A stretch of 64,000 nt of DNA from Nanobdellati archaeon (GCA_019429005.1 JAHYJR010000001.1:195232-259231); one strand, 5' to 3'. Counted from the stretch's first letter, positions 2,266 to 63,413 are shown. Notes: generated from the letters alone by a model not told the origin. Translations and numbers: made by a program.

Positions 2266-4140
2266 ATGGTATCTCACGATTATAAAAAACTAAATTTCAA
2301 ATGTGGTTTGGAATTTCATCAAGCTCTTGATACTGGAAAATTATTTTGTTCTTGTTCAAGTAAACTTTCTGAAGAATTGTTTGTTACTTCAGTTGAGCGT
2401 CGTCTTAGGCCTGTTGCTGGTGAAACAGGAAATGTGGATCCTGCAGTTCTTTTTGAATCCTTTAGGGACCGATCTTTTGTTTATAATATATATGCAGGTG
2501 AATCTTGTCTTGTTGAGTTGGATTGTGAACCTCCGCACCCCGTAAACGCATTGGCTTTCGATGTTTCACTTAAGATTGCTTTGATGCTTAATCTTGATAT
2601 ACCTCATGAAATATTTTTTATGCGTAAGACTGTTAATGATGGTTCAGCAACATCTGGATTTCAAAGAACTGCTTTAATAGGTACTGGTAATATGAATTCA
2701 ATAATAAAAAGTTCATTTGGTGATGTGCATATAGAAAATATGAGTCTTGAAGAGGATGCTTCAAAAATAGAAAAACGTGAAGGTGCTAAGGTTTATTATT
2801 CTTTAAGTCGTTTGGGTATACCTCTTGTTGAAATAGGTACTGCACCTGAGATAAAAACACCTGAACATGCTTTAGATATTGCAAAAATTATAGGTACTTT
2901 TTTGAGATCTTTTAATGAAATTAAACGTGGTATTGGGACTATACGTCAAGATGTGAATATCTCAATCGCTGGTGGTGAACGGATTGAAGTTAAAGGTTGG
3001 CAAGATTTAAATAAATTACCGCGTTTGATTGAGAATGAAGTTTCAAGACAAATTTTTTTAATTGAATTTAAGAATTATTTGGTCGAGAAAAACTTCACTG
3101 AACTAAAAACGAATTCAGTGTGTGATGTGACTGATATATTCAAGACTTCAAAATCTAAATTAGTATCTCGGATGTTATCTGGTGATTCTGTTGTTCTCTC
3201 TCTTAAACTTGAAAACTTCAGTGAACAATTAAAACGTGATGTCTGTGTTGGTAAGACTTTTGGTAAGGAATTAGCTGAGTATGCTATGGCTTATGGTGTT
3301 AAGGGTATGATCCACAGTGATGAAGATCTTTCAAAATATGGTCTTGAAACTGAATTCAAAACACTTTCAAAATATCTTGACGCGAAAAAGAATGATCTTG
3401 TTTTAATTATAATTGAATCTGAATCTGTTGCAAAAAAAGCGATAAATTCTGTAATAGATCGTATTAATTATTGTCTTGTTGGTGTTCCTAAAGAGACTAG
3501 GGTACCAAATCATGTGCTTGCAACGACTAGTTATGCAAGACCCTTACCTGGTTCAGATCGTATGTATCCTGAAACTGATGTCGCATCTATTGTTATTGAT
3601 TCAATTACACTTAACAAAATTTCAAAAATGCTTCCCGAAACTCTTGATGCTAAACGGCAGCGTTTTGAGGCTAATTTAGGTATTAATGTAGAATTAGTGA
3701 ATGCGTTAATATCTTCTAAATATTTGTATCTTTTTGACATTTTATCTTCAAAATATGCACCTGTTGCAAAAGAAATTGCAAACTGTTTTGTGAATACTCT
3801 TTTTGATTTAAAATCTCGTGAAAATCTTGATATTGCTTTATTGGATGATATCTTTTTTGATGAGCTTTTTAGTCTTTTGATAAAACAAAAAATTAAAAAA
3901 GCAATAATTCCTTATATCTTGTCTGAAAAGATAAAAACACCTAATAAAACCATTTTAGATATATTAAGTGGTGTCGAAACAGTCTCTGATGTGGAAGTAC
4001 TATCTGTAATCAAAAAGTTGATTTCAGAAAACAAAGATGTATCAAAAAATGCGATAATGGGTATGGTTATGGCTAAGCTTCGTGGCAAAGTTGATGGAAA
4101 AGTTGTTTCTGATTTGGTTTTGAAACAATTTCAAAACTAA
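2266..4140 (+). CDS. gatE: Glutamyl-tRNA(Gln) amidotransferase subunit E
   Basis: 624 aa. N-terminus MVSHDYKKLNFKCGLEFHQ..L.TG.KLFC.C is the characteristic GatE start; length matches. GatB/YqeY-like C-terminal region. Confidence 0.88.
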   Translation: MVSHDYKKLNFKCGLEFHQALDTGKLFCSCSSKLSEELFVTSVERRLRPVAGETGNVDPAVLFESFRDRSFVYNIYAGESCLVELDCEPPHPVNALAFDVSLKIALMLNLDIPHEIFFMRKTVNDGSATSGFQRTALIGTGNMNSIIKSSFGDVHIENMSLEEDASKIEKREGAKVYYSLSRLGIPLVEIGTAPEIKTPEHALDIAKIIGTFLRSFNEIKRGIGTIRQDVNISIAGGERIEVKGWQDLNKLPRLIENEVSRQIFLIEFKNYLVEKNFTELKTNSVCDVTDIFKTSKSKLVSRMLSGDSVVLSLKLENFSEQLKRDVCVGKTFGKELAEYAMAYGVKGMIHSDEDLSKYGLETEFKTLSKYLDAKKNDLVLIIIESESVAKKAINSVIDRINYCLVGVPKETRVPNHVLATTSYARPLPGSDRMYPETDVASIVIDSITLNKISKMLPETLDAKRQRFEANLGINVELVNALISSKYLYLFDILSSKYAPVAKEIANCFVNTLFDLKSRENLDIALLDDIFFDELFSLLIKQKIKKAIIPYILSEKIKTPNKTILDILSGVETVSDVEVLSVIKKLISENKDVSKNAIMGMVMAKLRGKVDGKVVSDLVLKQFQN

Positions 4141-4200: not shown

Positions 4201-5373
4201 TTAGAAATTTAAACAGTTAAATTCTGTTTTCAAATCTTTTATTTTTTGATTTAATACTGTGTCTGTTATGTCTTGACTGTACTTGATTATTTCCGTAATC
4301 TTTTTATTGAATTCTTTAATAATCTGGGTTATTGGATGTTCTGCATATGTTTCTGTTTTGGTTGTTTTTGGTTCTAAATATGTGGGTTTTTGTGTTTCTT
4401 GTTCTTCTTCATCTTCGTTTGTATTTTTGATTGTATATAGTTCTTCGTCATCGATTCGGTTAGTACCTATTCTATGTGCATTTTGTGTATTTGATGTTTT
4501 TGGGTCCTTATAGTGTATTTTTGGATGTGTGTCTGTTGTTGTAGTATTTATGTCTGTTATATATTCTGTATTTATATTTGTTTCTGGATTTTTAATCGCA
4601 TTATATAGGTCTTCAGCATAAGTGTTTGTAAATTTATTTTTATATTTTGTAATTGTAGTTTTAAAATCTTTTACAGATCTGATTGTGTCATTAAAACGTT
4701 TTCGTCCAAGGTTTATATTACCCTCTCCGATTATATCATATAGGCTTTTTACAACCGTTTCATATTTTTCATAAAGTGTATTTGTTATGTTGTGTTTATT
4801 GTTTGCTTTTTGCACTATTGTTGCATCACCTTCTGCAATAAGTTTATTGAATTTTTTATCTATGTATGGGAGTATGTCTGCTTGTTGAGCATGTACTAAT
4901 TCGTGTGTTTTTACAGAGTCTTTATATTTTGTATCTGTTATTGAGGGGTCTAAGTATATTGAGATATGATCTGGTTTTATTTCAGTACCATTTAGTTTAT
5001 ATTTAATCTCTGTAAGACCTACTGTATTTGATGGCAATCTTGCAATTGTGTAATCTAATTCTGTAACGTCATATTTATGTTCTTTTGGTGTGTGTTTTAA
5101 TGTTTTTAGGTATCTTTCAGCTAAGTCAAATATATTATAATCTGGTTTGTTTGTTGTTGTATATTGTTTTAATATCTCTGTATTGTATTCGGGTTGTGTG
5201 TCTGTAATATATTTAGGTTGTATGTCTGTGATGTATTTTGGTTTTGTGTCTATTAAATATGGTGCTTGTTTGTTTGATATACCTAAATCTATTGTGTGTG
5301 TATCTGTTTTGTATTGTATTTGGGGAGCTACTATATATGCTGATTTCAAATCACTTAAATACATAAATAACAC
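4201..5373 (-). CDS. Thr/Asn/Lys-rich hypothetical protein with an HExxH-x19-E (gluzincin-like) motif; possible Zn metallopeptidase
   Basis: 390 aa. THELVHAQQ...(19 aa)...AEGDAT has the spacing of thermolysin-type zincins. Internal short repeats KYITDIQP/KYITDTQP. No recognisable signal peptide. Confidence 0.4.
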   Translation of the reverse strand: MLFMYLSDLKSAYIVAPQIQYKTDTHTIDLGISNKQAPYLIDTKPKYITDIQPKYITDTQPEYNTEILKQYTTTNKPDYNIFDLAERYLKTLKHTPKEHKYDVTELDYTIARLPSNTVGLTEIKYKLNGTEIKPDHISIYLDPSITDTKYKDSVKTHELVHAQQADILPYIDKKFNKLIAEGDATIVQKANNKHNITNTLYEKYETVVKSLYDIIGEGNINLGRKRFNDTIRSVKDFKTTITKYKNKFTNTYAEDLYNAIKNPETNINTEYITDINTTTTDTHPKIHYKDPKTSNTQNAHRIGTNRIDDEELYTIKNTNEDEEEQETQKPTYLEPKTTKTETYAEHPITQIIKEFNKKITEIIKYSQDITDTVLNQKIKDLKTEFNCLNF

Positions 5374-5570: not shown

Positions 5571-6623
5571 GTGAGACCAAACCTTTATTTAAACTGCGTT
5601 CTAAGATTATGTATGGTATTTAAGCATCTTGTCTTTTGGATTTCAGGAATTTTTGGAACTTCAAGGCCTGTGGTATACAAGGATGAGCTTGATGCTATTG
5701 TTGAAACTGTTGTGGGTGGGTTTTCAAAGATTAATTTACGTATTTCTCAAAGTGATAATGAACTTAGTCTTTTGAGACAATCTGTGCTTCAGACACAACA
5801 AATACCAATTAGTGTGAATCTTCCTCAATTAGATAGCCTTATTATGGGTTATTCTACGATTTCAGAACGTGTTCATGTTGTTGAGTCTAATAAAGATGTT
5901 ATTAGTAATAAATTATTTATTTTAGAATCGACGCTCTCGTCTCGTATTGATTCTATTGTGTCTCAAAAACTAGAATCTATGGGCTCTAGTACCATTTCCG
6001 GTTCTTTAACAACACCTCAAATACTTGAATCTTTGCGTGCTCTAGAATCTTCTGTAAATCATATTAAATCTGAGTTAGTTACACGTTCAACTGTTGAATC
6101 TAACAACGTTACAACACCTAACAACAACGTTACAACAGCAAATAACAATGTTACAACACCTAACAACAACGTTACAACACCTAATAACAACGTTACAACA
6201 CCTAATAACAATGTTACAACACCTAATAAGAACGTTACAACAGCAAATATGTCGTTTGATGATGATTTGACTGCACAAGACGATGTTTATGGGGGTTCCG
6301 TTGACTTTGGTCAGGGTGTACAAAACGTGTCTGGGCCAAAAGCTTTTGGTTTTAAACCTACTCGTACGGTTGTCACTTCGCGTAATATGAATAAAGTACT
6401 TGTTTCATCCTTAATACCTGTTTTTAATGAGCTTTTAAATGCTGAGAAATTTTTATCTTACTCTGAATTGTCTAAACGTCTAAATAAAAAAGAAGCAACG
6501 GCAAGAGCTTATGTTAATGCTTTGAAAACTTATGGTGTTTCTATTGATGAACAGACTGTTTCTAACGGGCGTAAGCTTGTAAGGCTTGCAAAGGATGTTG
6601 TGCGTAAATATCTTATTCCTTAA
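5571..6623 (+). CDS. Hypothetical repeat protein: coiled-coil N-region, 7 x NVTTPNNN tandem repeats, basic C-terminal domain
   Basis: 350-aa ORF, true start uncertain. Seven perfect or near-perfect 24-nt repeats at about 6102-6250. C-terminal 60 aa are helical and basic, possibly DNA-binding. Confidence 0.5.
   Translation: MRPNLYLNCVLRLCMVFKHLVFWISGIFGTSRPVVYKDELDAIVETVVGGFSKINLRISQSDNELSLLRQSVLQTQQIPISVNLPQLDSLIMGYSTISERVHVVESNKDVISNKLFILESTLSSRIDSIVSQKLESMGSSTISGSLTTPQILESLRALESSVNHIKSELVTRSTVESNNVTTPNNNVTTANNNVTTPNNNVTTPNNNVTTPNNNVTTPNKNVTTANMSFDDDLTAQDDVYGGSVDFGQGVQNVSGPKAFGFKPTRTVVTSRNMNKVLVSSLIPVFNELLNAEKFLSYSELSKRLNKKEATARAYVNALKTYGVSIDEQTVSNGRKLVRLAKDVVRKYLIP
6102..6250 (+). repeat. 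24-nt tandem repeat, 7 copies (aacaacgttacaacacctaat and variants) inside the coding region
   Basis: Seen directly in the sequence. Encodes (N)NVTTP/ANN repeats. Confidence 0.9.
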
Positions 6624-16298: not shown

Positions 16299-16841
16299 CT
16301 AATTTTTAACAAATTTTTCAAAGATATCTTTATTTTTAACTTCAGGATGGAACATAAGGCCATAGATATCTTTTGTTTTATGTTTTATAGCATGGACACA
16401 ATTCTTTGATTCCGCTAAAATATCAAAGTTTGTTGAGGGTATTACTGAATAACTATGAAGGCTGTATGCATTAAATTTTCCAGAAAACAAAGAATTTTTC
16501 TTTTTTGTATTAACTTCAACAAGACCAATTTCTGTGCAAGGCTTAAGGGTTGAGCCAAATACGAGCGCGATAATTTCCATACCTGCACAGATTCCAAGCA
16601 TAGGTTTATCGTAATTGGTTATCCAACTGAATTTATCAATATCATCAATAAATCTGTTATCTTTAAGATTTGCTCCAGATAGAATTATTTTATCTGTTTT
16701 ATCTATATCTTTGTCCTTTATTTCAGAATACTGTAGGACCCTAAAATCCGTTTTATCTTTTATTACAGACACAATAGGCTGAATAAATTCATAAGCTTCT
16801 AAAGAATCTTTTTTATGGTTCATATCAACAATCAATATCAT
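16299..16841 (-). CDS. Class I glutamine amidotransferase (GMP synthase subunit A-like)
   Basis: 180 aa. Catalytic GICAGME (nucleophile Cys) and LMFHPEV (His-Glu) motifs. Confidence 0.7.
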   Translation of the reverse strand: MILIVDMNHKKDSLEAYEFIQPIVSVIKDKTDFRVLQYSEIKDKDIDKTDKIILSGANLKDNRFIDDIDKFSWITNYDKPMLGICAGMEIIALVFGSTLKPCTEIGLVEVNTKKKNSLFSGKFNAYSLHSYSVIPSTNFDILAESKNCVHAIKHKTKDIYGLMFHPEVKNKDIFEKFVKN

Positions 16842-17539
16842 TTATCAACCAGCTCCACAGATTTGATTATGAATATGCCCGAATTGTCTTTTGCGTTTTT
16901 TTCAAAGTCTGTAAGTACTATTCGTTTCTTGAAGAACGGTGCATCAAGAACGGTGGTCTCAAGTTCACCACCTTCACCTGCAGGATTTATTTCATATTTG
17001 GCTTGTAATACAACAAGCTTTGCTATAATATTTTTATCTATTTTTTGCCCTAGCCAACTTTCGTCTAGAGGATATGCAAAGATACCAGAAATAATTATAT
17101 TGTATTTATTTTCAACAAGTTCATTTAGAAGTTCTACCTGATCTTTCATCCAGAGCGGATTTATGCATTTCAAGTTTAACTTATCACATATAATCTCTAT
17201 CCTTTTTGATTGATAAACAGATTGTATTGTGCCAGTTACGATTCCATTTAACTTGTATATTTTTTTTGCTTTTTTTATCGCATTCTCAAGATCTTCTAGT
17301 TCTTTTTCTTTTATACCTTCAGTTTCGACTTTTAAAAGTGGGATACCTATTGCTTCAGCTTGAAGGTCTGTAATATGGATGTTTGGCGTATGAAACATAT
17401 AGCTTTCCTTATTTTTTGAGACAATTGCTATAAGACATACTACTGTTTCTTTTTTCATAGCTATATCTAACGCATATGTTGAATCCTTGCCACCTGAAAA
17501 CAGAACACCGAGTTTCATAAGATAATAATTGATAGGCAA
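16838..17539 (-). CDS. PP-loop ATPase of the MJ0570/Dph6 family (diphthine--ammonia ligase-like)
   Basis: MKLGVLFSGGKDSTYAL PP-loop; about 225 aa with EGGE motif. Likely true start at 17518 (MKLG...). Confidence 0.65.
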   Translation of the reverse strand: MPINYYLMKLGVLFSGGKDSTYALDIAMKKETVVCLIAIVSKNKESYMFHTPNIHITDLQAEAIGIPLLKVETEGIKEKELEDLENAIKKAKKIYKLNGIVTGTIQSVYQSKRIEIICDKLNLKCINPLWMKDQVELLNELVENKYNIIISGIFAYPLDESWLGQKIDKNIIAKLVVLQAKYEINPAGEGGELETTVLDAPFFKKRIVLTDFEKNAKDNSGIFIIKSVELVDK

Positions 17540-29642: not shown

Positions 29643-29818
29643 AGAAAAATATTGTATTGTTTAGTATATATATTTTATTATAGTTTATCTAAAAGAATTC
29701 ATCAGGTGCGGTTTAATCTTATATACTTTTAATGTTAAATAATTTACATCAGTATTAGTTAAATATTTAAATCATAAGCGTACATTAATTTTATATTAAT
29801 AAATCGGTGTTTTATTTT

Positions 29819-30592
29819 ATGGGTCGTGTAATCTGTCTTGTATCGGGTAAAGGTGGTGTTGGAAAAACTACACTTGCGTCCAATATAGCTATGGCATTAA
29901 ATAATTTTGGAAAAAATACAGTTGTCATTGATACAAACCTTACAACACCAAATTTAGGTTTTCATCTTGGTGTACCACTTTATCCTAAAACCTTTCATGA
30001 TGTTTTGAATGGTACAGCTACTTATGAAGAAGCAACTTATACACATCCTTCAGGTCTTAGAGTTATGCCTGCTGGAATATCTTTAAGAGATCTTAAAAAT
30101 ACAAATTTATCACAGATGGATAACGTTGTTCTCGATATTGCAGATAACCATGACATTGTAATTCTTGACGGTGCTGCAGGTCTTGGAAAAGAAGGTAAGG
30201 CGAGTTTAAGTGCAGCAGATGAAGCTCTTATTGTAACAAATCCACAGCTTCCATCAGTTACAGATGCTCTTAAGACAATAAAAATCGCAGAAGAGCTTGG
30301 TACAAAAATACTTGGTGTGGCTTTAAATCGTTCAAAAAATCATCCTTCCGAATTATCACAAAATGAAGTTGAAGCACTTTTAGGTTATCCGGTTATTTCA
30401 ATTATACCTGATGAGAATCATATTATAGACAGTCTTGCAGCAAAGACGCCTATTGTGGCATTCAAACCAAACACACGTTCAGCTCAAGAGATAAAGAAAC
30501 TCGCTGCATGTTTAATCGGTATTGATTATGACATCCCTGTTCAGAAAGAATATGGATTGTTTTCTAGAATTTTTGGTTTTCTTAAAGGTTAA
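29819..30592 (+). CDS. minD: MinD/ParA-family ATPase (archaeal MinD homologue)
   Basis: Deviant Walker A VSGKGGVGKTT. About 257 aa from the second Met; the ORF could also start at 29807. Confidence 0.85.
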   Translation: MGRVICLVSGKGGVGKTTLASNIAMALNNFGKNTVVIDTNLTTPNLGFHLGVPLYPKTFHDVLNGTATYEEATYTHPSGLRVMPAGISLRDLKNTNLSQMDNVVLDIADNHDIVILDGAAGLGKEGKASLSAADEALIVTNPQLPSVTDALKTIKIAEELGTKILGVALNRSKNHPSELSQNEVEALLGYPVISIIPDENHIIDSLAAKTPIVAFKPNTRSAQEIKKLAACLIGIDYDIPVQKEYGLFSRIFGFLKG

Positions 30593-30718
30593 GTTTTTAG
30601 TTTAACTTTTTTTTAAAACATTTTAGTTTTTGTATTATACTAAAACCTTATTTTCCTATGTTAGTTAATGCATTCAGTGCTAAAAATGCTGCAATAATTA
30701 ATCCCGAAAACAATAATA

Positions 30719-30814
30719 GTAAAGAAACATTGCTAACTATATCAGTTTGTTATCACAAGTATTATAATAATGCCGATTAAGAGGTAAAGAAACATTGCTA
30801 AAGATATCAGTTTG
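30719..30814. repeat. Two 31-bp direct repeats (GTAAAGAAACATTGCTAA[CT/AG]ATATCAGTTTG, 29/31 identical) 65 bp apart in the minD / E1-like intergenic region
   Basis: Seen directly. Overlaps a 48-aa minus-strand ORF (30749-30895). Confidence 0.5.
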
Positions 30815-30980
30815 AGCGAAAAAATAACTAAGCACTAACATTATGCTTGACAAAGTTGTTAAAGACCAATTTTGAGATATAGACTCTTTAGACATAAGTT
30901 ATAATGGTTTTTTTTTGTATAAATATTTGTTTATCAAAATTACACCCCACAAATTTAAACCTAAACAACCAATTTATCCT

Positions 30981-31997
30981 ATGCAAGACACAAATAAAGA
31001 CCTTGAACGTTACACAAGACAGATGATACTTAAAGGCTTTTTTAAGAAAGATCAGCTAAAGCTTCAAGGATCAAAGGTTGTAATCATTGGTCTCGGTGCC
31101 TTAGGGTCTGTCGCGTCAGAACTTATACTGCGCGCAGGTGTGAAGAATCTAGTTCTTGTGGATAGGGATTTTGTCGAGCGTAGTAATCTGCAAAGACAAC
31201 TATTATACGCAGAAAAGCATGTTGGTATGCCAAAGCCAAATGCTGCAAAAGAAGTCTTAAATCAAATTGATACATCTGCTAATATCTCCATATTCGTTAC
31301 AGATATTAATTCCTCAAACATAGAATCCATCGTGAATAAATGTGATCTCATACTTGATTGTACAGATAATATGGAAACTCGTTTTTTGATAAATGATGTT
31401 AGCCTAAAACATAACATTCCATGGATTTATGCTGCAGCTGTGGGTTTTCAAGGAACAACATTTAATATTATACCAGGAAAAACAGCTTGTCTAAGATGTG
31501 TTTTCAGCAAAGTACCACAAGGTCTTGATACATGTGACACGGCAGGCATCCTTTCAACTGTATCTGTATCAATCTCAGCATTACAAGTCACAGAAGCACT
31601 AAAAATCCTCACACAAAAACAATTTTCAAAAGATATGATATATTACGATGTATGGAATCAAACATTTGAACATTCTAAACTATTGAAAAACAAATCCTGT
31701 CCAGCTTGTAATAATATTTATGAGTATCTTGATAAAAAAGAACATTCAAAGACAATAACGTTATGTGGTCGTGGTGCTTACCAGATTATACCTAAGGATG
31801 CTATAAAATTAAATATAGAACTATTGGCTGATAAGCTTTCAAGATTAGGTTCTGTAAAATCATTTAAACCACATCTGATACATTTTAAATTAGAAGATAA
31901 AGCCCTCTCTATTTTTTCAGATGGTCGTGCAATAATAAAAGGTGCAAAAAGTATTTCAGATGCTCGAAGTCTTTATTCTAGGTTTGTTGGCAATTAA
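30981..31997 (+). CDS. E1-like ThiF/MoeB/HesA-family adenylyltransferase with about 100-aa C-terminal extension
   Basis: RYTRQ...L.G....Q.KL....V.IIGLGALGS nucleotide-binding motif; CxxC pairs (CLRC, CPAC) for Zn. ORF-track start 30915 is probably too early. Confidence 0.75.
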   Translation: MQDTNKDLERYTRQMILKGFFKKDQLKLQGSKVVIIGLGALGSVASELILRAGVKNLVLVDRDFVERSNLQRQLLYAEKHVGMPKPNAAKEVLNQIDTSANISIFVTDINSSNIESIVNKCDLILDCTDNMETRFLINDVSLKHNIPWIYAAAVGFQGTTFNIIPGKTACLRCVFSKVPQGLDTCDTAGILSTVSVSISALQVTEALKILTQKQFSKDMIYYDVWNQTFEHSKLLKNKSCPACNNIYEYLDKKEHSKTITLCGRGAYQIIPKDAIKLNIELLADKLSRLGSVKSFKPHLIHFKLEDKALSIFSDGRAIIKGAKSISDARSLYSRFVGN

Positions 31998-32044
31998 AAT
32001 CAATATAGCTATAATTTATAAAATTATAATCTTAATTCACTTCC

Positions 32045-32722
32045 ATGGCAAAAGAATTATCAAAAGTATCTAAAAATAAATCCGTTAAGTTAGTGTCATT
32101 AATATCGGGCGGTATTGATTCGCCGGTTGCAACCCACCTTATGCTTAAAAAAGGTGTTGACTTAGTTTTTGTACATATGGATAACAGACCGTTTATAGAT
32201 GATAGGCCTTTGAATAAAGTAATGTCTTTACTTGAGCATCTTGCAAAATTACATAAAAAAGATTTGAAGTTATATGTTGTACCTCATGGTCCAAATCAGT
32301 CTTTGTTTGCATCTTCATGTGATCGAAAACTTACCTGTGTTCTTTGCAGGCGTATGATGTATCGTGTTGGAGAAAATGTTGCTAAATTAGAGAATGCTGA
32401 TGCGATTTTAACAGGTGAAAGTTTAGGTCAAGTTGCAAGTCAAACGCTTGATAATCTATTTGTTGAGAAACAAAGTATCGCTACAAGGGTTTTAAGTCCA
32501 TTAATTGGTTTTGATAAGGAAGAGACAATAAAAATCGCAAAAGAGATTGGCACATATGAAATATCTATACTTCCTGGAGAATGTTGTAGTCTTACACCGC
32601 TTTATCCTGAAACTCATGCAAATTTGAAATATGTAGAATCTGAGGAATCTAATATTGATATAACATCTTTACTTGATGAATCTGTTAGTAACGCAAAGAT
32701 TATTACAATCAAGTTTAAGTGA
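32045..32722 (+). CDS. PP-loop ATP pyrophosphatase, ThiI-like (no THUMP domain)
   Basis: 225 aa. SGGIDSPVA PP-loop as in ThiI; Cys cluster C-x6-C-x2-C and CC suggest Fe-S or a persulfide carrier. Confidence 0.55.
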   Translation: MAKELSKVSKNKSVKLVSLISGGIDSPVATHLMLKKGVDLVFVHMDNRPFIDDRPLNKVMSLLEHLAKLHKKDLKLYVVPHGPNQSLFASSCDRKLTCVLCRRMMYRVGENVAKLENADAILTGESLGQVASQTLDNLFVEKQSIATRVLSPLIGFDKEETIKIAKEIGTYEISILPGECCSLTPLYPETHANLKYVESEESNIDITSLLDESVSNAKIITIKFK

Positions 32723-32749
32723 TTGTTATAATTATTATTTGATGAATGT

Positions 32750-34162
32750 GTGTTGGGTTATATGGGTTCTAAAACAAAAAATCAAAAATACCTTAAACCA
32801 AAATCAAACACATCCTTAAATCTAAACTGGAATCATCTGAGTTATCTTATTTTTATCATATCAACACTATTTTTTATTATCCAACGGTATATGGGTCCTC
32901 AATGGGATTTTCTTGTATATGTTTCAAATGCAAAATACCTTTTTGATGGAGGAACTTATTTTGAATGGTGTCGTTCGCCAATGATCTCTGTGATTATGTA
33001 TCTTTTAAGTTTCGTCGGTTGGACTTTATCAGAATATTTTTATCTTATATTTGTATCTATTTTATTTTTTGTTGCGACTGGAAAATTTGCAGAAAAATGG
33101 AATCTAGATAAAAACCTATTTTATCCTTTATCAATGTCATTTTTTGTCTTATTTTTTGGTGCTTCAAACGGTACCGAAATATTATCTGTATCTTTTCTAT
33201 TACTCTTTTTTGCATACATTGAAACAATTTTAGCAGGAGGTTTTATAGCATTAGCATTTTTATCCAGATACACTGTGATAACTTTAGTACCATTTTTGTT
33301 GTTGCAACGAAATATCAAAAAGATATTCTTATCATCTCTGTTATTTTTATTGATTTTATCGCCATGGTTTTTGTATAATTTTTATATGACTGGAAATCCT
33401 TTAATGAGCGTTATTGATTCTTATTCTCTGAATGTTAAGTATCGTCTTGAATACATGATGCATCCTCAAAACATCAATCATTTTGTGCAAGTTGTAGGTT
33501 TATTGGCGCCCCTTTTTATTATGGGTCTTTATAAATCATTTAGATCTTTAATCTCAAAAGCATCATCTTTTAAAGATATTATTGTCTCTGGATTGAAAAA
33601 TGTTTATTATAGGGATGCGGTTATGTTTATCTTCTTTATTATGACAGTATATTACTATCTTGGCACACCATTTAAAGTCGAAAGATATCTTTTTAATCTG
33701 ATAATACCTGTGACTTATTTTTCAGTTAGGTATTTATCTTCATTTGATTCAAATAAAATAAAATTATTTTTATACCCTATTGTTACATTAAATTTAATTG
33801 TAGCATTATTAATTCTGTTTGTTACAATACCTTACACAACTCAATTTTTATCAGACGATTATTTAGATATTAAGGATTGTCGTCTAATATCAAATGCATG
33901 GGCTCCTTTAAATTATCGTGATTTTGTGTCAGAACCTGCTCCAAACCCGACAAAACTTTTAGAAAATATTGATAACGGTTACATGTTCCTATATTTTAAA
34001 TCAATTGGTGAACCGGAATATATGTTAGATTCAAATTATACAAAACAGTTACCTATAATACGCGAAGCTGACAAATATATAATATTTGGCACAGGTGTTT
34101 GTTTGAATCGGCTCGATAAATATGAACATTTGTATCTAAGGTCAATTGGTGTATTACCATGA
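32750..34162 (+). CDS. Polytopic integral membrane protein (possible GT-C-type glycosyltransferase)
   Basis: 470 aa with about 11 hydrophobic helices. Its stop overlaps the start of the next gene (ATGA). Confidence 0.45.
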   Translation: MLGYMGSKTKNQKYLKPKSNTSLNLNWNHLSYLIFIISTLFFIIQRYMGPQWDFLVYVSNAKYLFDGGTYFEWCRSPMISVIMYLLSFVGWTLSEYFYLIFVSILFFVATGKFAEKWNLDKNLFYPLSMSFFVLFFGASNGTEILSVSFLLLFFAYIETILAGGFIALAFLSRYTVITLVPFLLLQRNIKKIFLSSLLFLLILSPWFLYNFYMTGNPLMSVIDSYSLNVKYRLEYMMHPQNINHFVQVVGLLAPLFIMGLYKSFRSLISKASSFKDIIVSGLKNVYYRDAVMFIFFIMTVYYYLGTPFKVERYLFNLIIPVTYFSVRYLSSFDSNKIKLFLYPIVTLNLIVALLILFVTIPYTTQFLSDDYLDIKDCRLISNAWAPLNYRDFVSEPAPNPTKLLENIDNGYMFLYFKSIGEPEYMLDSNYTKQLPIIREADKYIIFGTGVCLNRLDKYEHLYLRSIGVLP

Positions 34163-34791
34163 TACTTGAAGAATTTTATGCGTTAATGTCACATAAGGAT
34201 TGTGGTGAGTGTGGATTTTCTAGTTGTAGGACCTTTGCACGAAAACTAATACGGAAAACTTCAAAAATAGAGGGTTGTAAACATCTTAATATTGGTGCAT
34301 CTAAGCAGATTAACGAAATTCTTAAATGTAAAAAAATAATTCTTACAAAAGTATCAATGACTGGTAAAGGTATGCTTGTATTGCAACCTTGTCATTCTAA
34401 AGGTAAGCGTATGGCTGAATTCCAGATTAAACCATATAATGATCTATTTGGTGTATTTGATCTTGAAGCACTTAATACTTGTATCTCTAGTTGTAAGGAT
34501 TTTACAGATATAAAAAAATCTATAAATCTTGGTGTAATAACATTTTCATATTTTGAAAAGAAAGTGTTTGTATTTTCAAGCGGTCTTGTTAGGGTAAAAC
34601 AAGCAAAAAGTCAAGAAGATATATTAAATGCATCTGGATTTATACTGGAAAAAATAATTGGTTCTCTGATACTTGATGATGATGAACTCCTTTTAGAACA
34701 CAAAAGTTTTGATTCTGATTTATTTGAAAATTCAGTCTGGTATCTTTTAAACCTCAAACGGGAAGGTACAAAAATAAAGGATTTAATTTAA
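34159..34791 (+). CDS. Fe-S cluster domain protein (C-x2-C-x4-C-x16-C)
   Basis: 210 aa. N-terminal DCGECGFSSC...(16 aa)...C matches the putative Fe-S binding FeS-domain pattern. Translationally coupled to the upstream membrane protein. Confidence 0.5.
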   Translation: MILEEFYALMSHKDCGECGFSSCRTFARKLIRKTSKIEGCKHLNIGASKQINEILKCKKIILTKVSMTGKGMLVLQPCHSKGKRMAEFQIKPYNDLFGVFDLEALNTCISSCKDFTDIKKSINLGVITFSYFEKKVFVFSSGLVRVKQAKSQEDILNASGFILEKIIGSLILDDDELLLEHKSFDSDLFENSVWYLLNLKREGTKIKDLI

Positions 34792-34793
34792 AC

Positions 34794-36011
34794 CTATTTG
34801 AAAAATTCAATAGCTTCAAGAACCTTTTCTGCAAATAATGTAATCTCATTTTTAGTATTATAATAATATGCAGATGCTCTTGCAGATCCCGCAATCTTAT
34901 TTTTATTAAACCATGAATGTACGCAATGTGCACCTGAACGTATCATTATATTTGCAGATTCATCAAGTATCATTGCAATATCGTGCGGACTTATTCCTTC
35001 TACATAGAAACTGAATATTCCACCTCTTTGTGTTGAATCAGATGGTCCTATTATATTGACTTTATCTCTAAGCAGTCTTGTTGCAATATTGTTAAGCATG
35101 ATTTCATGATTTTGTATGTTTTCAATACCAATTTTGGTAAGGTAATCTATTGCAGCACCTAAACCTATTATTCCAGGATAATTTTGTAATCCTGCCTCAA
35201 ATTTCTCTGGAAGTGGACTTAATTTATATGAATCATATGTGGTATCAATTACAGTGTCACCACCGACAATAAATGGATCCATCTTTTCAAGCAATTCCTG
35301 TTTCCCATATAATACACCAACTCCATTTGGTCCGCTCATCTTATGTGATGACATAGCAAAGAAATCAACATTAAGTTTAGTGACATCAATTCTTTGGTGT
35401 GGTGTGCTTTGTGCACCGTCAAGCATCACAAGAGCACCATAGTCATGTGCAATCTTTATGATTTCTTTTGCAGGTATAGTGTATCCATCAATATTTGATG
35501 TATGTACCATGCTTACAAGTTTGACCTCTTTTGACATTATGGATTCAAATGTGCTTAAGTTAAACGTATTATCTTTATTTGATTCTATAATTTTATAATT
35601 TATGTTAGCGTTTTCTTTTAATTTAAGCCAAGGCATAAGGTTTGAATTATGTTCTTTATCTGTTGTTATTACAATATCATTCCTTTTAAGACCTAATGAA
35701 TTTGCCACAAGGTTTATGCTTTCAGTTGTGTTTTTTGTAAAGATTATTTCAGAATTATTTTTTGCTCCTAAAAAAGTTTTGGTCTTATCTCGTGCAGAAT
35801 CAACTTGTTCTGTCACGATTCTTGCGAATTTATGTGTTGACCTTCCAGAACATGCAGGATATTCATTATAATATTGATTCATAGCATCAATGACTTGTTT
35901 TGGTTTAAGTGTCATGCATGCATTATCGAGATATACTATTGGTTTATTATTAATTTTTCTTTCAAGTACTGGGAAATCTTTACGAATTTGATTAATGTTC
36001 ATAGCAATCAC
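34794..36011 (-). CDS. Cysteine desulfurase (class V aminotransferase, SufS/NifS-like)
   Basis: 405 aa. PLP-lysine motif SSHKMSGP, N-terminal IYLDNA, C-terminal active-site region RSGAHC. Confidence 0.85.
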   Translation of the reverse strand: MIAMNINQIRKDFPVLERKINNKPIVYLDNACMTLKPKQVIDAMNQYYNEYPACSGRSTHKFARIVTEQVDSARDKTKTFLGAKNNSEIIFTKNTTESINLVANSLGLKRNDIVITTDKEHNSNLMPWLKLKENANINYKIIESNKDNTFNLSTFESIMSKEVKLVSMVHTSNIDGYTIPAKEIIKIAHDYGALVMLDGAQSTPHQRIDVTKLNVDFFAMSSHKMSGPNGVGVLYGKQELLEKMDPFIVGGDTVIDTTYDSYKLSPLPEKFEAGLQNYPGIIGLGAAIDYLTKIGIENIQNHEIMLNNIATRLLRDKVNIIGPSDSTQRGGIFSFYVEGISPHDIAMILDESANIMIRSGAHCVHSWFNKNKIAGSARASAYYYNTKNEITLFAEKVLEAIEFFK

Positions 36012-48932: not shown

Positions 48933-49123
48933 TGTGTGATGAAAAAAGCAATAAAACTTGGAAATGAGTTTGTTGATGCTTATCTTTATGCTAAGGTTAA
49001 GGTGTGATTATATCTAATTTTTGAAGATGTTTTTATTCCGTTTCTCTGTTTTTGTTATACTTGATTGTTTCATACACCTATTTTTTTAAAATCTTAAGTG
49101 ACTATTTTACGAAAAATATATAT

Positions 49124-49462
<339 letters not shown>

Positions 49463-49501
49463 ATCGTTATAAAAAAATGTAAAATATCTTTAGTTGATTG
49501 T

Positions 49502-50350
49502 ATGAAACAAAACATTAATAATCATCTCAGTATAATGACAATTTTATTAAGAAAATGTAATTTATATTGTGATCATTGTTCTTCTAATTCTTCGTTTAAA
49601 CGTGAAGGTTTTGTTAATACTGATGATATTTTAAACATATTGGAAGCTTTTGCGCCATATGCCAAGAAAAAACAGCATCTTGTTAGTGGAGGGGAACCAA
49701 CATTACATCCAGATTTACATTATGTATTATCTGCTTCAAACGATTTGGGTTATAAGACATCAGTTGTGACTAATGCGTCTTGGATTGATCTTGATGATAT
49801 GGGTAAGACTGAAAGATTTTTTTATGACACTTTTCCTGAAGATTTAAAGATAACATCATCTTTTGATCTGGAGCATTTCAAGGAAGATCCAATGCTTCTC
49901 CAAAGATTATCTGTTTTACATGATTTAACACATAATCGCAATAAAATTACTATTGATGGTGCATATAATGGCGTTAACGGTATAAAGAAAATACAGTCTT
50001 ATTTAGACGAAACTACATTTGATTATATGTTGATTCCTATGCAGAGTATGGGGCGGGCAACAAATTTAGTAAATCAGAATATTTTAGATAATAATAAATT
50101 ATCTTGTCCTAAAGGTGATAAGAAAGGGTTTGTTATCACTGATGATGGTGTATATTATTGCTTAAGGACTGCTCTTACTTCAAATCCTTGTTTTAAACTT
50201 TCAGATAGTTATGATGTGGAAGAAATATTACATGCTTTGGATTGTTTCAATTCATCTTCAATAAACAGTTCAATCGTATCATTATATGATAATTTATCGC
50301 CTCAAGAGATTATTGATAATTATCATTATCCTTGTGATTTATGCGAATAG
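49502..50350 (+). CDS. Radical SAM protein with C-terminal Cys-rich region (possible SPASM/twitch auxiliary cluster)
   Basis: 282 aa from MKQNINNH.... CNLYCDHC equals CxxxCxxC at residues 19-26; GGEP motif; C-terminal cysteines C..(CPKGD)...YYC......C and terminal CDLC. Confidence 0.72.
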   Translation: MKQNINNHLSIMTILLRKCNLYCDHCSSNSSFKREGFVNTDDILNILEAFAPYAKKKQHLVSGGEPTLHPDLHYVLSASNDLGYKTSVVTNASWIDLDDMGKTERFFYDTFPEDLKITSSFDLEHFKEDPMLLQRLSVLHDLTHNRNKITIDGAYNGVNGIKKIQSYLDETTFDYMLIPMQSMGRATNLVNQNILDNNKLSCPKGDKKGFVITDDGVYYCLRTALTSNPCFKLSDSYDVEEILHALDCFNSSSINSSIVSLYDNLSPQEIIDNYHYPCDLCE

Positions 50351-62849: not shown

Positions 62850-63413
62850 TCAAGATGACGTTAACGAATTGGTATCTTTATTCAGTTTTTCAAGCACAAT
62901 TTTTAATTTTCCAATCGCTTCATGTACCATTTCACTGCTTTTTCCACCAGTACATATAACTTTTCCAGATCTGAACAGTAAAAATACAACTTTTGGATCT
63001 AAAAATCTTAATACAAGACCGGGGAATTGCTCTGGTTCGTATTCAGTACCTTCGAGCGTGAATGCTATTTTATTTAGATTAAGTTCTTCTGCGACTTTTG
63101 TTGATGCGACCATATTATGGACTGTTATGTCTGAATCATGAGGTATTTCAATACCGATGGATCTTATGTCTTCAAGAAGTATATTTATAGCACTTGTTGC
63201 TTGTTCAGATGATTTTGTGCCTGTACATACAATTTTACCCGAATTAAATACTAATGCAGCAGATTTAGGTTCTTTGATTCTATATACAAGACCGGGGAAT
63301 TGTTCTGGTTCATATTCAGTACCTTCAAGTTCAAGGGATAATTGTGATAGTGGTATTTTTGTGTTTGTTGTGCATGATGCAACAACATTATGTATCTTTA
63401 TTTCCTCATCCAT
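62850..63413 (-). CDS. tbp: TATA-box-binding protein
   Basis: 187 aa. Two direct repeats (EYEPEQFPGLVYR / EYEPEQFPGLVLR). Confidence 0.93.
   Translation of the reverse strand: MDEEIKIHNVVASCTTNTKIPLSQLSLELEGTEYEPEQFPGLVYRIKEPKSAALVFNSGKIVCTGTKSSEQATSAINILLEDIRSIGIEIPHDSDITVHNMVASTKVAEELNLNKIAFTLEGTEYEPEQFPGLVLRFLDPKVVFLLFRSGKVICTGGKSSEMVHEAIGKLKIVLEKLNKDTNSLTSS

Follow-up and report, generated by a model that had tools for sequence, protein, structure and literature searches.

A cysteine-containing TBP-fold module in a partly conserved sulfur-transfer gene cluster of a DPANN archaeon

Introduction

How is sulfur passed on in a gene cluster that encodes an E1-like enzyme, a ThiI-like enzyme and a cysteine desulfurase, and no ubiquitin-like (Ubl) carrier beside them? 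This question is raised by five genes of a DPANN archaeon, contained in a stretch of DNA of 64 kb (hereafter, the window). An earlier note, made from the sequence alone, had read them as a sulfur-mobilisation neighbourhood for tRNA or cofactor thiolation that includes an unusual membrane/Fe-S module. All five ORFs are present, and the locus is a genuine cluster of sulfur-transfer genes, conserved in part: the sulfur neighbourhood is borne out, its core being kept in other genomes, whereas the membrane/Fe-S module is not. What sets the cluster apart is a small domain of the TBP fold. A TBP domain at the C-terminus of MoeB/ThiF homologues is reported in the accessible part of Brindefalk et al. 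(2013; PMC3597702), and an "E1 core + TBP-like C-terminal domain" in that of Makarova and Koonin (2010; PMC2948915). According to the former text, the function of this domain on MoeB/ThiF-type E1s has been explicitly unassigned since it was first noticed (PMC3597702).

The genes of the cluster

The first gene (30981..31997, + strand) codes for an E1-like ThiF/MoeB adenylyltransferase of 338 aa, 100% identical to a database protein from a DPANN MAG (P0003). The ThiF domain PF00899 covers residues 11-242 (236 bits, cutoff 28.1), and the NCBIfam profile PRK12475 aligns end to end (profile positions 3-338 of 338) with 327.3 bits; the protein thus has the two-domain architecture of the MoeB-TBP/PRK12475 group, although it scores under the curated cutoff of 510. 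The GxGxxG loop (GLGALG, residues 37-42) and the Arg finger (RSNLQRQ, 67-73) are in place, and the CxxC pairs of the Zn site (CLRC, 170-173, and CPAC, 240-243) as well as the crossover/active-site-loop cysteine, Cys185 (DTCD), align with those of Escherichia coli MoeB (1jw9). The extra C-terminal domain that had been noticed earlier consists of about 95 residues beyond PF00899, outside any assigned Pfam domain. A beta-grasp or rhodanese domain had been suggested for it; instead, it has a TBP fold. This Cys-TBP module (about residues 247-338; 31719..31997, + strand) carries Cys262 in an LCG turn, which is followed by an "F.DGRAIIKG" strand.

The second gene (32045..32722, + strand) codes for a PP-loop ATP pyrophosphatase of 225 aa, a paralogue of ThiI/TtuI (PF02568, 211 bits; PRK08349, 229 bits). 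As claimed earlier, THUMP is lacking: PF02568 is the sole domain, the protein starts only 14 residues ahead of it, and neither Pfam nor NCBIfam gave a THUMP, ThiI_fer or rhodanese match (PF02926 and PF22025 absent). The PP-loop SGGxDS motif reads SGGIDS (residues 21-26), and the score against TIGR00342 is 205, below the cutoff of 264.5. Its cysteines, C92-x5-C98-x2-C101 and C180-C181, are invariant in four orthologues and match the CXXC+C motif, so that this short ThiI should hold a catalytic [4Fe-4S] cluster, as the motif does in the rhodanese-less archaeal TtuI (PMC9825150). The archaeal TtuI/ThiI enzymes of M. maripaludis and P. furiosus likewise combine a PP-loop domain with CXXC+C and have no rhodanese (PMC9825150); the short ThiI differs from them in lacking the N-terminal ferredoxin-like and THUMP domains and in the additional conserved C92. 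A canonical full-length ThiI is found alongside the short one in six metagenomic loci, and the latter is therefore a distinct paralogue. Because of this coexistence in other genomes, the product of the short ThiI is probably other than, or additional to, s4U8.

The third gene (32750..34162, + strand) codes for a polytopic membrane protein of 470 aa (466-470 aa in its family) with at least eight hydrophobic segments, in agreement with the earlier reading, and without any Pfam, NCBIfam or PDB sequence match. Its TGA overlaps the ATG of the following Fe-S gene (ATGA), which upholds the translational coupling proposed for the pair. The two genes are not, however, paired in any homologue locus examined: no Fe-S gene adjoins the homologues of the membrane gene (L171, L173), whose neighbours vary from locus to locus, and this membrane gene adjoins none of those of the Fe-S gene (L001, L087, L088, L089). 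The membrane family has 22 homologues, the named sources being only DPANN-type (Pacearchaeota), and for one of them there is a precomputed EpsG match (PF14897). The first loop, acidic and conserved, and a GT2 gene that is the neighbour at one homologue locus (L173) would be compatible with the GT-C-like nature proposed earlier; the protein may be of a glycosyl-transfer or polymerase type. TauE is not related to this family. The membrane gene is probably a bystander, outside the sulfur system.

The fourth gene (34159..34791, + strand) codes for a protein of 210 aa. The C-x2-C-x4-C-x16-C motif described earlier corresponds to Cys15, Cys18, Cys23 and Cys40 and lies in an N-terminal PF04060 domain (39.1 bits, cutoff 23), which is predicted to bind a cluster of the [4Fe-4S] type. 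The same four-Cys domain is found at the N-terminus of RnfB and in the ACDS gamma subunit; in contrast to these, the remainder of the protein is not a ferredoxin or corrinoid-binding domain. It is a second copy of the Cys-TBP module, identified by hhalign at about residues 69-172, with Cys78 in "QPC" ("VFVFSSGLVRVKQAKS"). An exhaustive HMMER search collected 132 representatives of this Fe-S/Cys-TBP family. Module and Fe-S domain also occur in reversed order (P0154, P0215, P0223, P0243, and P0246). The AF2 model of the whole Fe-S protein is poor (pLDDT 46.6).

The last gene (34794..36011, - strand) is convergent, as had been stated, its stop codon lying 2 bp from that of the Fe-S gene. It codes for a SufS-like group-II cysteine desulfurase of 405 aa (PF00266, 394 bits; TIGR01979, 447.7 bits, below the cutoff of 475.1), with the PLP lysine Lys224 (SSHK) and the catalytic Cys363 (SGAHC). 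No homologue of SufB/C/D/U or IscA was found in the 64-kb window, and none of the five proteins has a rhodanese match in Pfam or NCBIfam.

The Cys-TBP module and its genomic company

Profile comparisons indicate that the same module exists in three contexts: fused to the E1, fused to PF04060, and encoded by a gene of its own beside the THUMP-less ThiI. Aligned with the E1 C-terminal domain, the core of the Fe-S family gave an hhalign probability of 95.8% (E 6.5e-9) and the stand-alone ORFs of about 100 aa 97.6% (E 3e-12); stand-alone modules and Fe-S core gave 96.6% (E 5e-10). The module cysteine occupies one alignment column, being present in 27/27, 83/85, and 18/21 sequences across the three contexts. 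The module on the Fe-S protein, the stand-alone copy beside the short ThiI and the cysteine common to all contexts are new here; the accessible parts of the MoeB-TBP literature mention neither the invariant Cys nor the stand-alone copies or the PF04060 fusions (PMC3597702, PMC2948915). Neither the Pfam TATA-binding protein family (PF00352) nor the organism's own TBP (62850-63413; hhalign probability at most 15%) matches the module, which is a single domain and not a tandem double, and hence has only the fold in common with the TATA-binding protein.

The genomic company of the module is recurrent. The E1-TBP protein is carried by at least 596 species, and its neighbours within 2.5 kb were counted at 52 loci with flanks of at least 2.5 kb: a class-V cysteine desulfurase is found at 28 of them, a PF02597 ThiS-like ORF ending in GG at 26, and both at 22. 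In bacteria, the desulfurase partner belongs to the TIGR01977 clade, above its cutoff. E1-TBP also adjoins the THUMP-less ThiI in Aenigmatarchaeota and Methanoregula (L007, L040, L061) and in about ten metagenomic loci. In Methanoregula (L061), a Ubl-TauE-SufS-E1-TBP array is convergent with the short ThiI and a small TBP gene. A module lies at most 1.5 kb from ThiI in 28/65 THUMP-less loci versus 2/15 THUMP-fused loci; in 23 of the THUMP-less loci a stand-alone module of about 100 aa lies within this distance, abutting the 3' end of the ThiI gene in most cases inspected, and the E1s beside full-length ThiIs are without the module. Finally, a diverged DPANN contig (L087), whose PheRS is only 38-39% identical to that of the window, has the Fe-S and SufS genes convergent and abutting (SufS 60%, Fe-S protein 39% identical), and no ThiI beside the pair. 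This adjacency is seen in only two of the five Fe-S-family loci, namely the window itself and L087, and as both share some synteny (ADK, PheRS), part of it may be due to common descent.

Three of the pairs (E1-TBP with desulfurase, E1-TBP with short ThiI, and Fe-S with SufS) thus recur elsewhere, and the possibility that genes of this kind are never co-localised in other genomes does not hold. The same evidence bears on whether, in a compact genome, housekeeping genes might largely have come to lie side by side by chance, the Fe-S protein being functionally uncoupled from E1, ThiI, and SufS. The genes around it are indeed housekeeping ones (LeuRS, MinD, CysRS, ADK, PheRS), an unrelated membrane gene sits in its middle, the nearest E1 relatives (L002, L005) have other neighbours, with a suf operon nearby and no ThiI or Fe-S/TBP gene adjoining the E1, and in the locus of the closest Fe-S homologue (L001) SufS is not adjacent. 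Nevertheless, chance is an improbable explanation, because the pairs, together with that of the short ThiI and the module, recur across phyla and because one specific homologous module is common to the Fe-S protein and the E1.

Domains of the TBP fold are known above all as binders of nucleic acids or proteins, and the module, with a median pI of about 9.4, is basic. It could accordingly be an RNA-binding adaptor that replaces NFLD-THUMP in trans and guides the short ThiI to (t)RNA, the cysteine being structural or incidental. Besides its charge, this would fit its tie to THUMP-less and not to THUMP-containing ThiIs, and the nucleic-acid binding of TBP-fold domains in TBP, RNase HIII, and DNA glycosylases that is described in the accessible part of PMC3597702. 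Such a role is unlikely, since most of the species with the module on an E1 have no short ThiI next door and the neighbours counted there are desulfurase and Ubl genes; in L087 the module, joined to an Fe-S domain, has SufS abutting it and no ThiI at all; the near-invariant cysteine of the hairpin turn would be left unexplained; and the profiles of module and NFLD-THUMP are not similar (probability <5%).

The ubiquitin-like carrier

The earlier statement that no small GG-ending ORF (SAMP/ThiS/MoaD) lies nearby can be extended to the 64-kb window. Among its ORFs of 45-140 aa that end in GG, up to six extra residues being allowed, none is a plausible Ubl, the two pattern matches being hydrophobic low-complexity ORFs, and an unfiltered ThiS-like profile of 44 sequences gave a best E-value of about 0.7. 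The absence is real for the window, yet atypical for the E1 family, which has the ThiS-like gene next door in half of the loci counted. In the DPANN-like loci L002, L005, L007, and L087 no ThiS/MoaD-like ORF was found either; the gene of the carrier lies beyond the window, or these DPANN lineages do not use a carrier.

In the latter case, the TBP-fold domain of the E1 might itself be the analogue of a Ubl carrier, adenylated and thiocarboxylated at its C-terminus, as is speculated in the accessible text of Makarova and Koonin (2010; PMC2948915). This would account for the Ubl-less DPANN loci, and the C-termini of the E1 family are uniform ("...[VI]-G-x"), the penultimate Gly being invariant. 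We regard it as very improbable: a bona fide ThiS-like GG protein is encoded beside the E1 in 26/52 loci, a G-x end is absent from the stand-alone modules and from the Fe-S-fused ones (which lie inside the Fe-S protein), and the roughly three residues that extend past the last helix in the E1 model are short for reaching the adenylation site.

If the carrier is encoded elsewhere in the genome, ThiF-like E1, ThiI, and NifS/SufS might serve archaeal thiazole (thiamine) sulfur transfer, with ThiS as the missing piece. The homologies fit, and in L061 the cluster has an HTH-NMT1/THI5-like gene and ThiN at its flanks. The probability of this explanation is small, given that the window has no ThiS or ThiN homologue, that ThiG, ThiH, and ThiE were not seen among the ORFs inspected, and that archaeal Ubl genes, according to the accessible part of PMC2948915, have no contextual link to thiamine genes except ThiI.

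A proposed sulfur relay

We propose that four of the five genes encode a relay of sulfur from cysteine to product, in which SufS feeds the Cys-TBP module and the module feeds the E1 and the short ThiI, a reading for which we consider the balance of probability even. The desulfurase would form a persulfide on Cys363, and the sulfur would move to the invariant module cysteine, either Cys262 of the E1 or Cys78 of the Fe-S protein, before being consumed by the adenylate-forming enzymes, that is, the E1 and the THUMP-less ThiI paralogue. In the genomes with a ThiS-like gene next door, the E1 would thiocarboxylate the carrier which that gene encodes. The Cys-TBP module would thereby take the role of the rhodanese domain, which is fused to the E1 in MoeZ/Uba4, to the PP-loop enzyme in E. 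coli ThiI, or stands alone. Both the carriage of persulfide by the module and the order of transfer are inferred from these associations. A thiolated RNA nucleoside, different from canonical s4U8 or made besides it, is the probable end product.

Several known systems resemble this arrangement. Uba4, MOCS3, and MoeZ likewise consist of an E1 core and a small C-terminal Cys domain, and work with a desulfurase and a carrier of the ThiS/MoaD/Urm1 type; the domain is a rhodanese there versus a TBP fold here, where the persulfide role is a putative one and the window has no carrier gene. In Thermus thermophilus, TtuA, TtuB, and TtuC act with IscS/SufS in the s2T54 thiolation of tRNA. The four types of component of this system (desulfurase, E1-like enzyme, Ubl thiocarboxylate, and [4Fe-4S] PP-loop sulfurtransferase) are all present in L061; in the window, by comparison, the PP-loop enzyme is of ThiI and not TtuA type and has no RNA-binding domain, the E1 has an extra module, and there is no Ubl. 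The E. coli relay of IscS, ThiI (rhodanese), and ThiF/ThiS also joins a desulfurase, ThiI, and a ThiF-type E1 in one network, with an accessory Cys domain transferring the sulfur, but the window has neither rhodanese nor ThiS, and no thiazole synthase was seen among the ORFs inspected.

Biological significance

To our knowledge, no in vivo sulfur donor is known for the rhodanese-less, cluster-dependent ThiI/TtuI enzymes. In their published assays the sulfur source was inorganic sulfide (PMC9825150). The Cys-TBP module is one concrete candidate for filling both this gap and that of the function of the E1 TBP domain, and the THUMP-less ThiI paralogue family is defined in the present work. More tentatively, the module may represent a widespread and hitherto unrecognised class of persulfide relay, a structural alternative to rhodanese, TusA, and SufE, that serves adenylate-forming enzymes of sulfur insertion: E1s, THUMP-less ThiIs, and perhaps PP-loop proteins of the PAPS-reductase-like kind. 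Where Ubls are scarce, in DPANN archaea, the sulfur of SufS may then pass directly, via the E1- and Fe-S-fused copies, to the [4Fe-4S] ThiI paralogue, whose product would be distinct from canonical s4U8. Should the module prove to carry persulfide, the few known sulfur-trafficking domains would be joined by a new fold, and a function would be assigned to proteins in hundreds of species of bacteria and archaea, among them the desulfurases of the uncharacterised TIGR01977 clade.

The five genes and their surroundings

Each of the five genes that the earlier note had claimed at 30981-36011 was found exactly at its place by ORF and domain scans of the window, a low-GC (about 30%) part of a DPANN-group archaeal MAG. 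The first (30981-31997, plus strand) encodes an E1-like ThiF/MoeB protein of 338 aa, whose ThiF domain (residues 11-242) is followed by about 95 further residues. This protein aligns over its whole length with PRK12475, an NCBIfam model of 338 positions, at a score under the cutoff. The nucleotide loop (GLGALG) and the Arg finger are retained, as are the two CxxC pairs for zinc and Cys185 of the crossover loop. The second gene (32045-32722, plus strand) encodes a 225-aa protein formed by the ThiI PP-loop domain alone (short ThiI, or ThiIs), in which domain searches detected no ThiI_fer, THUMP or rhodanese domain. It is followed by a membrane ORF of 470 aa (32750-34162, plus strand), whose stop codon overlaps the start codon of the gene for a 210-aa Fe-S protein on the same strand, the TGA of one and the ATG of the other sharing ATGA; the Fe-S protein carries a PF04060 domain with the pattern C-x2-C-x4-C-x16-C. 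Finally, a SufS-like desulfurase with PLP Lys224 and catalytic Cys363 is encoded on the minus strand (34794-36011), convergent with the Fe-S gene, the two stops lying 2 bp apart. The earlier note had found no small GG-ending ORF nearby, and neither a scan of GG termini nor an unfiltered search with a profile of 44 ThiS-like sequences brought up a ThiS/MoaD-like ORF anywhere in the 64 kb. A Ubl (ubiquitin-like carrier) was missing from the DPANN-like loci L002, L005, L007 and L087 too. A 67-aa ORF immediately 5' of the E1 gene in two loci from other genomes (L005 and L006) was considered as a Ubl and rejected, since it lacks a GG end and does not resemble ThiS.

Other features of the window were recorded in passing. 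Two adjacent minus-strand ORFs occupy 16299-17539 (16838-17539, 233 aa; 16299-16841, 180 aa), and the first shows by eye an SGGKDS PP-loop-like motif at its start, which would make it a second PP-loop-type enzyme of the window, unrelated to the ThiI-like gene. A tandem array of 340 bp (49121-49460; period 9/24/33, consensus TATTATTAT..., 90% matches) is located in the lowest-GC part of the window, within a mechanically called ORF (49052-50350, plus strand) whose translation would be poly-Tyr/Phe. Coding tandem repeats were also seen at 6101-6249 (21 bp x 7.1 copies, within the plus-strand ORF 5571-6623) and at 5177-5251 (24 bp x 3.1 copies, within the minus-strand ORF 4201-5373), the product of the latter having repeated 'TDIQPKYITDTQPEY'-like units.

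A TBP-like module on the E1 and Fe-S proteins

The E1 tail, of about 92 residues, is strongly conserved among homologues (LCG..A.QI ... F.DGRAIIKG ... A.SLY..YvG-x). It had been suggested that it might be a fused beta-grasp or rhodanese domain; it is neither, and both the AlphaFold topology and the literature point to a TBP fold. The model, computed from 27 aligned sequences, has a confident pLDDT of 85 and shows the order b-b-a-b-b-b-b-a. Brindefalk et al. (2013; PMC3597702) list MoeB homologues that end in a TBP domain and call them a 'previously unrecognized family', without experimental information. Sequence kinship to the organism's own TBP (62850-63413) was tried and rejected (hhalign at most 15%); in BLASTP this TBP matched the Fe-S protein at an E-value of 0.02 and could not be aligned to the E1 tail. 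The E1 tail and TBP are related by fold, without significant sequence similarity to the organism's own TBP.

The same module is present on the Fe-S protein, whose residues ~120-154 resemble the E1 tail (by eye, then with a BLASTP E-value of 0.001). A word-indexed protein search returned one relative only; HMMER, run exhaustively against 1.84 billion representatives, returned 132 proteins of the Fe-S/Cys-TBP family. Their layout consists of PF04060, a segment with the conserved pattern 'h-P-C...KGK.MaE' and a core resembling TBP ('vFvF.nG.vrvK.Ak'), with an extra Cys-rich segment and a helical tail in the longer members; stand-alone versions of 97-99 aa and reverse-order two-domain proteins also belong to the family. 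Compared profile to profile, the core (85 sequences) matches the E1 C-terminal alignment with a probability of 95.8% (E 6.5e-9). An AF2 model of the whole Fe-S protein, based on a 2-sequence alignment (pLDDT 46.6), was excluded from fold inference. Among the database proteins, those of reverse order (P0154, P0215, P0223, P0243 and P0246; ~170-210 aa) have the Cys-TBP module first and PF04060 last. Residues 15-137 of P0246 match positions 526-648, in the C-terminal part of PRK13795, an NCBIfam model of 667 positions ('hypothetical protein'), which suggests that fusions of the module and PF04060 with a larger enzyme exist as well. Another five proteins (P0130, P0137, P0138, P0145 and P0157), of 359-557 aa, have PF04060-like Fe-S repeats in tandem, four to six of them.

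E1-TBP neighbourhoods in other genomes

The E1 with C-terminal module (E1-TBP) is encoded in at least 596 species, according to a GTDB scan of one genome per species (pattern FxDGRAIIK; the query being a 7-sequence subset of the 27-sequence E1-tail alignment), and its hosts include Planctomycetota, Acidobacteriota, Chloroflexota, Methanobacteria and Methanoregula. A class-V desulfurase was often its immediate neighbour in the 80 loci retrieved. Among the 52 with at least 2.5 kb of flank on each side, from which neighbours were counted, a desulfurase lies within 2.5 kb of the E1 in 28, a GG-ending ORF of the ThiS family (Pfam-confirmed in sampled cases) in 26, or 35 if the whole locus is considered, and both in 22. 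The bacterial partner belongs, above cutoff, to the uncharacterised TIGR01977 clade, and the archaeal partners are SufS-like. A compact and widely conserved operon of ThiS-like Ubl (ending ...IIPAVAGG), E1-TBP and TIGR01977-family desulfurase was seen in L025, L034, L042, L082 and about 20 other Planctomycetota loci. The module might itself have been taken for a Ubl analogue, a reading against which there is specific evidence.

A THUMP-less ThiI is the neighbour of the E1 in one contig of Aenigmatarchaeota (L007) and two of Methanoregula (L040, L061). The order MinD-E1-ThiI is common to the window (29807-32722) and L007 (1206-4598), with identities of 70% for MinD, 50% for E1 and 60% for ThiI; L007 differs in having one opposite-strand phosphoribosyltransferase-like gene between the archaeal MinD and E1. 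In the Methanoregula contig L061, a Ubl-TauE-SufS-E1-TBP operon is convergent with ThiIs. These adjacencies of E1 with desulfurase (28/52 loci) and with THUMP-less ThiI (L007, L040, L061) show that the core of the neighbourhood is conserved elsewhere, so the genes are not ones that persist individually and never co-localise; chance juxtaposition likewise has specific evidence against it. As a separate observation, a 132-aa gene without Pfam match lies on the minus strand between the suf operon and E1-TBP in two Woesearchaeota-like contigs (L002, 6938-7336; L005, 7175-7573). Its conserved product, HTH-like by eye with a C-terminal C..H...C..C, may be a regulator, and has no homologue in the window.

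Short ThiI and the stand-alone module

A metagenome scan provided 80 ThiI loci; in about 49 the protein is short (no more than 260 aa, with a stop upstream), and in about 25 it is full-length ThiI. In four of the nine short-ThiI loci with flanks of at least 3 kb, an E1 matching through the TBP-like domain lies within 1 kb; in the E1s adjoining full-length ThiI the match stops at about residue 250. When all loci were searched with the module profiles, ORFs of ~100 aa came to light (motif 'vrLCSDKAAFEv ... S.DGRMLIKrV.nE.EA') that lie at the 3' end of the short ThiI gene or close to it. They are homologous to the tail of the E1 (97.6%, E 3e-12) as well as to the core of the Fe-S family (96.6%, E 5e-10). 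An origin of these ORFs as the split-off NFLD-THUMP of ThiI was rejected, hhalign giving less than 5%. In stand-alone or E1-fused form, the module is found within 1.5 kb of 28 of the 65 THUMP-less ThiI genes vs. 2 of the 15 THUMP-fused ones; among these 28, it is stand-alone in 23 and E1-fused in 10. One Cys column is common to the three module contexts in a joint alignment (27/27, 83/85 and 18/21), and in the AlphaFold model this residue is located in the turn following the first strand.

In the short ThiI itself, C98-x2-C101, C180/C181 and C92 are invariant in four orthologues, and these cysteines fit the CXXC+C motif that binds the catalytic [4Fe-4S] cluster in the rhodanese-less archaeal TtuI (PMC9825150). 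In six metagenomic loci (L100, L116, L117, L120, L126 and L129), short ThiI has the gene of a canonical ThiI_fer-THUMP-ThiI protein a few kb away. Short ThiI is therefore a distinct, coexisting paralogue, and its role is probably other than canonical s4U8 formation. Like the other five contigs, L117 (6541-11645) carries short ThiI, a small Cys-TBP gene, E1-TBP and canonical ThiI_fer-THUMP-ThiI together.

The main alternative to a sulfur-handling function sees in the module an RNA-binding adaptor in place of THUMP, in agreement with its basic character (pI ~9.4) and with the nucleic-acid-binding history of the TBP fold. However, this leaves unexplained why E1 fusions occur in organisms that lack short ThiI, why the module is linked to desulfurases and why the Cys is invariant.

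The Fe-S/SufS pair and the membrane gene

The arrangement of Fe-S and SufS genes was found again in L087, a 93 kb contig from a diverged DPANN-like organism (PheRS 38-39% identical), where a 382-aa protein of the Fe-S family abuts a convergent SufS (60% identical) as in the window; no E1, ThiI or membrane gene lies near this pair. Three other loci of the Fe-S family are short or have different neighbours. Support for a link between the Fe-S protein and SufS thus comes from one independent case and from the shared module, not from many loci.

The earlier note had regarded the membrane and Fe-S genes as a module. The two genes do overlap by 4 bp, but they are not kept together elsewhere: this membrane gene stands beside no Fe-S homologue among the loci examined. 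The membrane protein has no family assignment, which leaves the earlier note's label 'GT-C-like' tentative; a PDB sequence search gave no matches, and the only named sources among the 22 detected members of its family are DPANN-type (Pacearchaeota). Behind the gene of its closest homologue (62% identical) come an unrelated gene of 197 aa and ADK, and behind that of a more distant one comes a GT2 glycosyltransferase. For lack of a conserved pairing with the Fe-S gene, the membrane gene is judged to be a bystander. It was also ruled out as a counterpart of the TauE of the Methanoregula operon (0.3%). The latter, a TauE/SafE-family membrane protein (L061, 6804-7772), lies inside the Ubl-SufS-E1 operon; in L170, a long Fe-S/Cys-TBP gene comes after GcvH and LplA (lipoylation) and is directly followed by a TauE/SafE gene (2939-3289). 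These two cases hint at a recurrent TauE link and, possibly, at a lipoate connection.

A possible persulfide relay

The E1-TBP architecture, together with some E1-ThiI and E1-Ubl linkage, is already in the comparative-genomics literature. In a literature search with incomplete coverage of prior art, no publication came up that describes the module on a PF04060 Fe-S protein, the stand-alone module tied to THUMP-less ThiI paralogues, its invariant cysteine or its link to TIGR01977 desulfurases, and nothing relevant on THUMP-less ThiI or on PF04060 proteins with TBP-like domains.

The partners of the module are E1 and the Fe-S domain (by fusion) and the desulfurase and cluster-type ThiI (by adjacency), and their common denominator is sulfur chemistry on adenylated substrates. 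Its distribution resembles that of rhodanese domains, which form part of the E1 in MoeZ/Uba4 and of ThiI in E. coli and occur as separate proteins elsewhere. Because of this shared chemistry and mirrored distribution, a persulfide relay by the module is proposed by analogy. Thiamine-type ThiF/ThiS/ThiI chemistry, another explanation for such a set of genes, has specific evidence against it. The earlier reading of a sulfur relay is partly supported: the cluster is a variant of the known sulfur relays of desulfurase, E1 and PP-loop enzyme, with recurrent adjacencies, and the membrane gene falls outside it. In the proposed relay, the Cys-TBP module (Cys262 in the E1, Cys78 in the Fe-S protein) would take persulfide from SufS and would hand the sulfur to the E1-bound acyl-adenylate, to the ThiIs cluster or to both, and the copy fused to the Fe-S domain may tie the relay to a redox or cluster-dependent step.
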